A stretch of DNA of 63,530 bases, filler included, from Collodictyon triciliatum (Eukaryota), in NCBI GenBank assembly GCA_043381765.1. It is 25 parts of 25 records of this genome, joined end to end, with 100 filler letters (N's around TTAATTAATTAA, not from the genome) between each part and the next. Parts side by side here need not be neighbours in the genome. Positions count along the whole stretch, not along the records: positions 20,859 to 23,362 come from JBHJMP010008756.1; 24 more parts are not named here. The stretch is one strand, 5' to 3'. This document shows positions 20,859-23,362 of this stretch, in pieces. The translations under genes and the position numbers were made by a program. How positions within the stretch are numbered: position 1 is the stretch's first letter; every line of letters starts with the position of its first letter. The notes under the pieces were generated by a model. It did no database searches and was not told the DNA's origin. It saw only the letters and a program-made list of their open reading frames with translations.

Positions 20859-20931
<73 letters not shown>

Positions 20932-21001: not shown

Positions 21002-21448
21002 TCATAAATCGCTCAACTCACTAGCAGCCGCGGCATTCCGGACCGTGATCGATCGCTGTTGCAAAAGAATCTCACTGGGTAGAGGCTGTTGGTGTTGATA
21101 ATGCTGCTGTTGTTGGTGCTGCTGTTGAAAGGCGGGCGGGGCGTAATGCGAGGCAGCTGCATTTGCCTCGGGTTGGACATACACACGGATCTCCTTGACG
21201 CGGGTGGCAGGCGGCTGGCTTTGAGCCACAGGCGCAGCCGGGGCCTCTGCAGCGGGCGGCGAGCCTATGAGGAGAGTGCGTGGCATGTTTGCGGTGATCT
21301 CGTACTCATCAATCAGGTCCTGCGGCTGCGGCTGCGGCTGATCCGGCCAGGCCGAGGGATCCACGTCTGCGTCTGTGCTGTTGCTCGAGAACGAAACGTC
21401 TCCAAAGGACGCCTGGGGCTGTCCCACACTGCGCCTGTATGGATCCAT
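21002..21448 (-). CDS. Hypothetical Pro/Gln/Ala-rich protein (GC-rich; possibly the first exon)
   Basis: 148-aa ATG ORF with coding-like composition; no recognisable domain. Confidence 0.45.
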   Translation of the reverse strand: MDPYRRSVGQPQASFGDVSFSSNSTDADVDPSAWPDQPQPQPQDLIDEYEITANMPRTLLIGSPPAAEAPAAPVAQSQPPATRVKEIRVYVQPEANAAASHYAPPAFQQQHQQQQHYQHQQPLPSEILLQQRSITVRNAAAASELSDL

Positions 21449-22009
21449 CCCCGCTTGCTGTGCTCGCCTTGCGGGTGAGGCAGAGGCAGGGTGGCGCGTC
21501 TTTGGTTTAGTATGGTACGTCTGATCTGCTCCTTGCGGGAAAAGAGGTGCTGGAGAGAAGGAGAGGGAAGGGAAGGGCTGTCTGGTAGGCTTCTCTGCAT
21601 TTTACTATCATTATTTACTTTGATCTGCCTTGCTTCTTTGTGTTTGGGTTCTTTATAAAAGTGTTGGCGGGCTGTGTGCTGTGTCGCCTCCCGTATGTGT
21701 GTGTGTGTGTGTGTGTGTNNNNNNNNNNNNNNNNNNNNNNNNNNNNNNNNNNNNNNNNNNNNNNNNNNNNNNNNNNNNNNNNNNNNNNNNNNNNNNNNNN
21801 NNNNNNNNNNNNNNNNNNNNNNNNNNNNNNNNNNNNNNNNNNNNNNNNNNNNNNNNNNNNNNNNNNNNNNNNNNNNNNNNNNNNNNNNNNNNNNNNNNNN
21901 NNNNNNNNNNNNNNNNNNNNNNNNNNNNNNNNNNNNNNNNNNNNNNNNNNNNNNNNNNNNNNNNNNNNNNNNNNNNNNNNNNNNNNNNNNNNNNNNNNNN
22001 NNNNNNNNN

Positions 22010-22450
22010 TTTTTTTCACAGAGGCCGTGTAGTGGTGAAGGCTGCCAGGGAATACCCGACAGCTTGTTTTCTAGAAAGATGTATGTTTTATTTGAAGGAT
22101 TAAAAGAACTTTGTTAAGTATATTTTTAGCGATGTTAAAGTCCCCTGTCAAGAATACACTTTGTTTGATTTCTGAGGGAATGTATTCTTTACATATGAGA
22201 CATCTATAAAACTTTTTTGAGTTTCCTTTCGGTATCGTATATTCCAGTTCTTTTTCACAGTTACAACACATCTTGGAGGTTTTTAATTCATCTGCAATAA
22301 CTTTCAAAACGTTTGGATAGTATTTTTTCGTAATCCTCATCCAATTGTTGGCATAGAATTCTTCATCTGAGATTTTCTGCTCCAGTTTCCATACGCCGGT
22401 GCAACATCCTTGCCAAATGTCTTTTCGATTCGGTCCATAAACAATTCACT
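22010..22450 (-). pseudogene. Fanzor (eukaryotic TnpB-family nuclease) C-terminal fragment, degraded, with downstream right-end region
   Basis: Across frameshifts and one TGA: SELFMDRIEKTFGKDVAPAYGNWSRKSQMKNSMPTIG*GLRK/ILSKRF/KVIADELKTSKMCCNCEKEL...YRCLICKEY...TGDFNIAKNIL. This gives the RuvC-II 'DE..TS..C..C', zinc-finger and RuvC-III '(R)D.N.A.NI' motifs. Confidence 0.8.
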
Positions 22451-23265
22451 TTTTTTTTTTTTTTATTTTTTTCCCTTTATTCGATTCAAAGCGCAGCGAG
22501 GTTAAGCCATACAAAGGGGCGGGATGGGAGCGCATGGGAGAGAGCAAACGCGAGTAGGGGAAGACACTACCGTGGAGAGGGTAGCACTGGAAAGAAATCA
22601 GTAATAGCGAGTTGGTCAGGTGGGCGTCCCAACTGGTTGATTGGCTGCGTGGGTAGCAGGGGTTGGATGTGCTGTGAGAGATAACGCACGACACATTCCC
22701 ACATCTCTCTTCGCTTGCGGTCAGAGTAGCGAAGAATGCGAGCGTGTTTCAGCAGGCTGTTCAGGAAACTGTATTGCACGAGGCTTTCCAGCCTGGATAG
22801 ATTGATTTCTCGTTCGGGTGAATCATTCGAGTGAGAGAATGCGCGCACACTCCATAGGGACCACAGCATATGTCCCCTTGTGACTGCCCAGAGTATTCTA
22901 GAGTCGTGGGTCATTTGGTATTGTGGGCTAATTGGGATGTCAGACGCGCTGAGTCGGTTGGGCGCATAATCAAGCTCAGAGAGCAACTTGTGGGTAGATT
23001 CTGTCACTTTTTGAGCAAGAGAGCACTTCACAAATGCGTGTTCCATAGAGTCATCTCCACTATGGCACATGGTGCATTCTGGGGAGGTCGTTGCTGCATG
23101 GACTACGGGCACCTATCCACAGCTCTCTGTTGGAGATATTGAGCAGTAGGGCGCGGTGTTTCGGGAGTAACTGAGATCTGCGGGCTTGCTTCCAGCTTTT
23201 GACTATCAGCGGGTCTATAATGCCTATAGTTTCGGCCCAACGACTCATTTTCTCCGGTTTGTAGA

Positions 23266-23270: not shown

Positions 23271-23362
<92 letters not shown>

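Follow-up and report, generated by a model that had tools for sequence, protein, structure and literature searches.

The locus raised the question whether a short peptide on the minus strand, readable only across one stop codon and two frameshifts, was the remnant of a Fanzor nuclease, and if so, of which type and in what state. Fanzor1 proteins form the eukaryotic and giant-virus branch of TnpB and are RNA-guided DNA endonucleases with a single RuvC, carried by DNA transposons. The sequence at 22450–22074 on the minus strand was read as a dead, 5'-truncated Fanzor1 pseudogene, one copy of a multi-copy, diverged and neutrally decaying eukaryotic repeat family, with a probability of roughly nine in ten.

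Layout of the locus and its three frames

The window, that is, the whole stretch of 63,530 nt that was analysed, was composed of 25 separate contigs of ~2.5 kb (GC 26–63%), which were ordered by length and connected by linkers of the form N44-TTAATTAATTAA-N44. Since the contigs were joined by linkers, neighbourhood arguments across them are meaningless, and the genuine context of the Fanzor fragment was the contig at 20859–23362 only. This contig contained a gap of 291 N (21719–22009), starting 61 bases beyond the TAG stop of the fragment, and the assembly behind the window was highly fragmented and gapped. The features of the fragment were as follows; P0032 is the closest intact relative and X4 a public sequencing run, both described below.

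22074–22450, minus strand: Fanzor1 pseudogene fragment, the C-terminal ~125 codons over three frames, equivalent to residues 498–628 of P0032
22340–22450, minus strand: frame A, up to the TGA, followed by four more codons (22336–22325)
22337–22339, minus strand: in-frame TGA, private to the window copy; AGA (Arg) in every contig aligned there
22323–22328, minus strand: frameshift 1 (+1), a six-A run with one surplus base
22303–22323, minus strand: frame B, the middle piece
22301–22302, minus strand: frameshift 2 (−2), 2 bases lost outside any homopolymer
22074–22301, minus strand: frame C, a 79-aa piece closed by the TAG
22071–22073, minus strand: TAG stop; P0032 extends 20 residues further and the repeat family goes on downstream
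22010–22070, minus strand: 3' flank, still repeat family (X4 depth to 22010), ended by the N gap
22041–22063, minus strand: stem-loop with a 9-bp stem and a 5-nt loop, starting 8 bases past the TAG

The original prediction had stitched the peptide together across the TGA and two frameshifts. The frames ran as it described, and the second break was corrected to a 2-base loss between 22302 and 22301, so that one codon is lacking where frame B passes into frame C. The ~500 N-terminal codons, with the WED, REC and RuvC-I parts, were absent. What remained of the protein was its last fifth, starting with the helix that precedes the rearranged RuvC-II site, continuing over the alternative Glu and the zinc finger, and closing with RuvC-III. 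The TAG at 22073–22071 may be premature, given the longer P0032 and the depth in X4 out to 22010.

The 141-nt region around the stem-loop had a minimum free energy of −26.1 (z −2.33), and 2 of 200 shuffles folded equally well. By its predicted fold, the stem-loop could be part of the 3' RNA of the element or could be meaningless. At this z value the fold was too weak for the stem-loop to be taken as an omega-RNA. Transposon ends, a target-site duplication, a transposase and an omega-RNA were not visible in the 2.5-kb contig.

Assignment to Fanzor1

Direct searches with the fragment were weak and mixed. The original prediction had proposed a search against TnpB and Fanzor profiles. PF07282 (Cas12f1-like TNB) in Pfam gave E = 0.085 and 13.5 bits against a cut-off of 26.3, ranking behind C1_1 at E = 0.0073. 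The frame A piece had no Pfam match, NCBIfam gave nothing relevant to the fragment, a phmmer search of the PDB returned only Elf1 zinc ribbons at E of about 0.5, and a word-indexed search among longer proteins left none of 115 candidates at E ≤ 0.1. The matches to C1_1, PF07282 and Elf1 could be taken to mean that an unrelated CxxC zinc-ribbon sequence had been matched by chance. In the language-model Atlas, 25 of the 30 nearest clusters came under PF07282. The top score was 0.95, with 187 of 256 features shared, and the taxa of the clusters nearest the fragment were mostly Nucleocytoviricota.

When the 79-aa frame C piece was compared exhaustively by phmmer with 1.84 billion representative proteins, 18 matches were found at E ≤ 1e-3. 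One of them, P0002, is a HAMP/MCP receptor and was rejected as spurious. The other 17 were true family matches, with E values from 9.7e-16 to 9.2e-4, and all aligned over the same stretch. A Pfam scan of 10 of the 18 matches found PF07282 below its cut-off in five, the best being P0010 with 26.1 bits against 26.3. The sister copy P0001 (136 aa, NCBI source, from a 582-bp contig) was 78% identical to the third frame of the window over its first 35 residues and 56% identical to frame C in its middle, and by this pattern it is a mis-framed gene model.

The closest intact relative, P0032 (648 aa), was reached via P0001. Against the window pieces, its residues 551–628 (78 aa) were 58% identical (E 2e-26) and its residues 498–542 (45 aa) 60% identical (E 3e-19), and the two pieces were colinear. 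The same arrangement was found in P0013, of which residues 350–390 matched with 56% identity (E 7e-17) and residues 399–474 with 38% identity (E 7e-13), again colinear. The frame A piece (42 aa) was without cysteines, so its match was no zinc-finger artefact. A chance zinc-ribbon match was refuted by the library-wide phmmer matches and the colinear alignments with P0013 and P0032, which covered three frames and included the cysteine-free piece, and its probability is negligible.

Three of the longer relatives were compared with the PDB, with the following E values.

P0008 (634 aa): SpuFz1 (8gkh) 9.2e-37, over residues 14–607, nearly full length; PpFz1 (9cf0) 7.2e-34; GtFz1 (9cer) 7e-16
P0013: SpuFz1 2.6e-19; PpFz1 1.4e-14; GtFz1 1.5e-16
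P0032: SpuFz1 3.7e-23; PpFz1 2.7e-24; GtFz1 2.1e-28

These links to solved Fanzor1 structures, at E ≤ 1e-19 for the stronger pairings, also stand against a chance match. Only Fanzor1 chains matched P0008 and P0032 at E ≤ 1 and P0013 at E ≤ 0.01, and no Fanzor2, TnpB or Cas12 chain occurred in the PDB match lists of the three proteins. A structure of Mimivirus Fanzor2 has been published, according to the available part of the article (PMC11832414). The link of the fragment to the established Fanzors is, at the level of sequence similarity, transitive through metagenome proteins. P0032 itself had no Pfam match at E ≤ 0.01, and it carries a precomputed PF26935.1 assignment in the protein database.

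The Fanzor identity proposed for the fragment was therefore borne out by the 17 library-wide relatives, by the colinear match with P0032 and by the match of the relatives to solved Fanzor1 proteins. The profile search had failed with PF07282 and C1_1, whereas the phmmer relatives were significant and tied to Fanzor1 structures. The proposed Fanzor1 type and kinship with giant-virus and protist Fanzors were upheld by the same relatives and by their match to Fanzor1 chains alone in the PDB.

The residues of the fragment were then read against three published motifs, cited here from partial texts. The Fanzor fingerprint combines a DPG in RuvC-I with an alternative Glu that stands ahead of the zinc finger at a distance of six residues (PMC10711439). 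The canonical RuvC-II Glu is replaced by Gly or Pro in Fanzors (PMC10530073), and the motif [TS][TS]-x-x-C4-x(5,50)-RD has been given for the family (PMC3627910). The corresponding features of the window were as follows.

22379–22393, minus strand: YGNWS motif, with Gly in the canonical RuvC-II Glu position, the rearranged active site typical of Fanzors
22257–22292, minus strand: DELKTSKMCCNC, containing the alternative RuvC-II Glu (22289–22287) and the first zinc-finger CxxC (22268–22257)
22182–22202, minus strand: second half of the zinc finger, with the last ligand Cys changed to Tyr (codon 22184–22182)
22134–22145, minus strand: RuvC-III, reading GDFN, with the catalytic Asp (22142–22140) kept and the preceding Arg changed to Gly

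The YGNWS of the window paired in the alignment with YGDWS of the relatives, and the YGDWS of P0008 paired with GDWS of SpuFz1. Six residues separated the Glu from the CxxC, matching the spacing of the fingerprint, and TS-x-x-CxxC was present. The retention of both acidic residues, Glu 22289–22287 and Asp 22142–22140, was confirmed. With ligand positions taken from the SpuFz1 alignment, three of the four zinc ligands were kept; the fourth was Tyr in the window copy and Cys in P0001 and P0032. The GD was found in the window copy only, and the sister copies read RD, with C>T at 22145 over the full depth of X4 (10 contigs). The DPG of RuvC-I falls in the missing part and was found in the relatives P0019, P0013, P0022, P0027, P0023 and P0032. 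The C4 zinc finger–RD motif is recognizable in the translated sequence, in a degraded form as expected of a pseudogene.

The solved Fanzor1 proteins of Spizellomyces punctatus (8gkh), Guillardia theta (9cer) and Parasitella parasitica (9cf0) were the only PDB nucleases that matched the intact relatives. They shared with these relatives one succession of motifs (DPG, then GDWS, then the alternative Glu ahead of the CxxC...CxxC finger, then RD-N), and the relatives (634–648 aa) were of similar size. Compared with the solved proteins, the window kept only the last ~125 codons, in broken form. As the relatives had little sequence identity with the solved proteins, a separate Fanzor1 lineage was indicated. 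Bacterial TnpB (IS200/IS605, IS607) and Cas12f likewise have a split RuvC, whose RuvC-II and RuvC-III parts enclose a zinc finger. However, in RuvC-I most TnpBs show D-hydrophobic-G, and their catalytic Glu lies ~50 residues ahead of the finger, whereas in the family of the window the RuvC-I motif is DPG (in the relatives) and only six residues separate the Glu from the finger.

Sister copies and the adjoining retroelement

The 5' end of the Fanzor fragment was adjoined by the following features.

22451–22481, minus strand: AATAAA signal (22481–22476) and A-rich tail (22472–22451), the tail abutting the Fanzor fragment
22473–23260, minus strand: 3' part of a probable non-LTR retrotransposon, 5'-truncated and GC-richer, with an ORF (23112–22567) for the zinc-binding tail of reverse transcriptase
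23271–23362, no strand: (AAT)n microsatellite, reaching the contig end

The ORF of the retroelement matched zf-RVT in Pfam with E = 4.5e-4 and 21.2 bits, below the cut-off of 27.5. In the Atlas, 17 of its 30 matches were in the zf-RVT set, with mixed taxa (Arthropoda, Oomycota and Streptophyta). The reverse transcriptase domain proper was absent from the contig, which held the zinc-binding tail only, and no Fanzor sequence was found upstream of the retroelement in the contig. The retroelement was multi-copy and very deep in four runs, with a word depth of up to ~3500 in X4, roughly 10 times that of the Fanzor part. Other copies extended past 23260, and the copy in the window was therefore 5'-truncated. 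One further retroelement copy in X1 ended in the same tail, and one loose end at the retroelement in X4 resembled a cDNA template-switch adaptor. The single poly(A) RNA run, X20, covered only part of the retroelement (22678–22928) and none of the Fanzor fragment; X4 is guessed to be an RNA run.

Within the 25 contigs of the window, tblastn with the read-through peptide (out of frame after its first 42 residues) gave its own locus and two matches at E > 1, and blastn gave only a 24-nt low-complexity match. The contigs of four other public runs were compared with 22010–23262 at a likeness of at least 80%, leaving out 22439–22481. The runs held a share of 0.06–0.16 of the sampled words of the stretch, and no run reached half. 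Among those listed, sister contigs over 22076–22438 were about 82–92% alike in X1, X2 and X4; in X4 as many as 24 contigs covered a single column. These contigs indicate that the Fanzor family is multi-copy; its copies were seen in other samples and may not belong to the same organism. The proposal that this genome hosts or hosted a Fanzor family received indirect support from the sister copies in four other public runs and from P0001. No intact copy turned up for this organism.

The lesions of the window copy could be placed among these copies. The base at 22339 was A>T, giving AGA in place of TGA, in the only X1 contig, in all four X2 contigs and in 11 X4 contigs, at full depth. The surplus base at 22323 was left out in one X1 contig and four X2 contigs (all depth in both) and in seven X4 contigs (230 of 336 depth). 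Two bases were added behind 22301 in one X1 contig, two X2 contigs (5.3 of 10.9 depth) and seven X4 contigs (120.6 of 190.8 depth). Both indels were absent from most other copies, and most had an open frame at the lesions of the window. Among the substitutions listed that set the window copy apart, 10 of 12 changed a residue, including, from the window to the other copies, stop to Arg, Gly to Arg and Ile to Ser. Most of these substitutions gave a residue that relatives also have in that column, such as the Arg before and the Ser after the catalytic Asp.

These comparisons bear on the alternative that the Fanzor gene is live, its 3' part at this locus being broken by sequencing or assembly errors, and that the retroelement junction is an A-run chimera. 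Such errors would suit the highly fragmented and gapped assembly and the frameshift in a six-A run. None of the contigs listed bridged the poly(A) junction, in a comparison that leaves out 22439–22481, and the Fanzor–retroelement junction by itself could be an assembly join. However, the TGA stood against AGA in all contigs aligned, the 2-base loss lay outside any homopolymer, and a zinc-ligand Cys was changed to Tyr and the Arg beside the catalytic Asp to Gly. That 10 of the 12 private substitutions listed changed a residue also pointed to neutral decay and not to random read error. This alternative was considered highly improbable.

The TGA, the frameshifts, the lost conserved residues and the mostly residue-changing substitutions together indicated a neutrally decaying pseudogene. 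The inactivity of the copy, as originally proposed, was upheld by the TGA, both frameshifts, the Cys to Tyr change of the zinc ligand, the change of RD to GD and the ~500 missing codons, and the fragment is functionless today. By analogy with its family, the ancestral protein, when complete, would have used an omega-RNA, transcribed from the transposon's 3' end, to find and cleave DNA that matched it. The most likely source of the junction, as we infer it, is insertion of the retroelement into the Fanzor gene where the sequence was rich in A. The Fanzor1 copy has decayed neutrally, with acquisition of the stop and two frameshifts and loss of conserved residues.

The host is a eukaryote, judged from the retroelement, the microsatellites and a PurK–PurE gene with an apparent intron. 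This GC-rich (63%) fused PurK–PurE gene of the ADE2 type was found in two ORFs at 54911–57182 on the minus strand of a separate contig (54687–57184). Its ORFs were separated by ~320 bases of proline/histidine-repeat sequence, which is probably an intron, and AT-rich simple repeats lay on the flanks. Fusion of PurK with PurE is a usual trait in fungi, plants and protists but not in animals. For a protist host, as in the original prediction, the retroelement and this gene were the only hints, and the PurK–PurE contig and the Fanzor contig may stem from different organisms. On the Fanzor contig, beyond the N gap, a GC-rich open frame of 199 codons (21002–21601, minus strand), rich in Gln, Pro and Ala and without a Pfam match, could represent an exon of the host or a further repeat.

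Intact relatives and the origin of the family

Related loci were sought by a metagenome scan, which gave 10 loci, and by scans of a viral-contig collection, which gave three loci with P0013 and none among 36 candidate stretches with P0032. Locus L001 contained, at 174–3503, a 3,330-bp element with 32-nt inverted repeats and an intact 634-aa Fanzor1, P0019, which is one residue apart from P0008 and was recorded on 20 contigs. The 3.33-kb element was common to L001, L003 (8637–11952), L005 and L006 (8631–11951). It carried a DDE_3/HTH transposase of the IS630/mariner type on the strand opposite to Fanzor1. The transposase was intact in L003 and L006 and in pieces in L001, where the Fanzor stayed intact. 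The contigs of L003 (254 kb) and L006 (173 kb) had dense ORFs, a fused mRNA capping enzyme, HSP70, SNF2 helicases and the 2-cysteine adaptor domain, and by this gene content they look like giant viruses.

The element was of the same kind as the giant-virus Tc1/mariner (IS630)-type Fanzor1 transposons described in the accessible part of Bao and Jurka (2013; PMC3627910). The relatives in this element, which are more distant ones, were 41–55% identical to the window pieces. In comparison with such transposons, the window locus was without a visible transposase or inverted repeat, and its nearest clade (L008, L009 and L011) consisted of solo Fanzors in contrast to the transposase-linked ones. The solo genes were intact at L008 3740–5572, L009 6105–7985 and L011 3850–5631, with no adjoining transposase. 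Their surroundings were giant-virus-like, with ankyrin, MutS, DEAD helicase, RING and MORN genes; MutS adjoined the Fanzor in L009 and ankyrin genes in L008, and L011 and L013 came from the viral-contig collection.

A maximum-likelihood tree was built from the last 190 residues (192 columns, 27 rows). P0002 was left out as spurious and L012 because its translated tail was identical to that of L011. For P0006, P0008 and P0011, the longer members of their clusters (P0022, P0019 and P0027) stood in, and P0020, P0021, P0023–P0026, P0028, P0029, P0031, P0032, L001, L002, L007 and L010 were not included. The window paired with P0001 (support 95/90), and this pair was sister (86/88) to a clade of P0013, L008, L009 and the viral-collection loci. 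As the tree was unrooted with long branches, it gave no direction of transfer.

On this placement the fragment might be regarded as what is left of a giant-virus genome that had integrated (an endogenous NCLDV segment), in which case it would not be a copy of a nuclear transposon family. The giant-virus-like contigs of L003 and L006, the MutS and ankyrin genes beside the solo Fanzors, the viral-collection origin of L011 and L013, the viral-collection rows in the sister clade and the Atlas taxa are all consistent with that origin. However, the many diverged copies (82–92% alike) in each of three runs form the pattern of a dispersed repeat and not of a single integration, and the rest of the 2.5-kb contig was non-viral, with a retroelement and microsatellites. 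The tree, with its 192 columns and long branches, does not speak for transfer in either direction. An integrated viral segment was considered improbable, and the decayed copy of a nuclear repeat family is retained as the reading of the locus.

A broader scenario, which we regard as doubtful, is that a freshwater microbial eukaryote acquired its nuclear Fanzor1 family from giant viruses, that the family multiplied there, and that intact active copies or close relatives such as P0032 remain. If true, it would provide a fresh case of virus-to-host transfer and a new lineage of compact RNA-guided nucleases. The intact members of the lineage, P0032 and P0019, came from freshwater metagenomes and giant-virus-like contigs, and the lineage could be mined for nucleases or could serve studies of the transposon traffic between giant viruses and their hosts.

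The fragment alone matters little, as one more decayed copy of a well-known family with entries from thousands of genomes, both eukaryotic and viral. Jiang et al., in the part of the text available (PMC10530073), counted 3,655 unique Fanzors in a set of 22,497 assemblies, where a single genome held as many as 122 copies, and a dead C-terminal relic beside a retroelement is what Fanzor families leave behind. A point of modest value is the approach, by which a short relic in three frames was securely tied to Fanzor1 through metagenomic intermediates where curated profiles fail. Among these intermediates, the family member P0006 (378 aa) was named '6-pyruvoyl-tetrahydropterin synthase' by its source, which looks like a mis-annotation.
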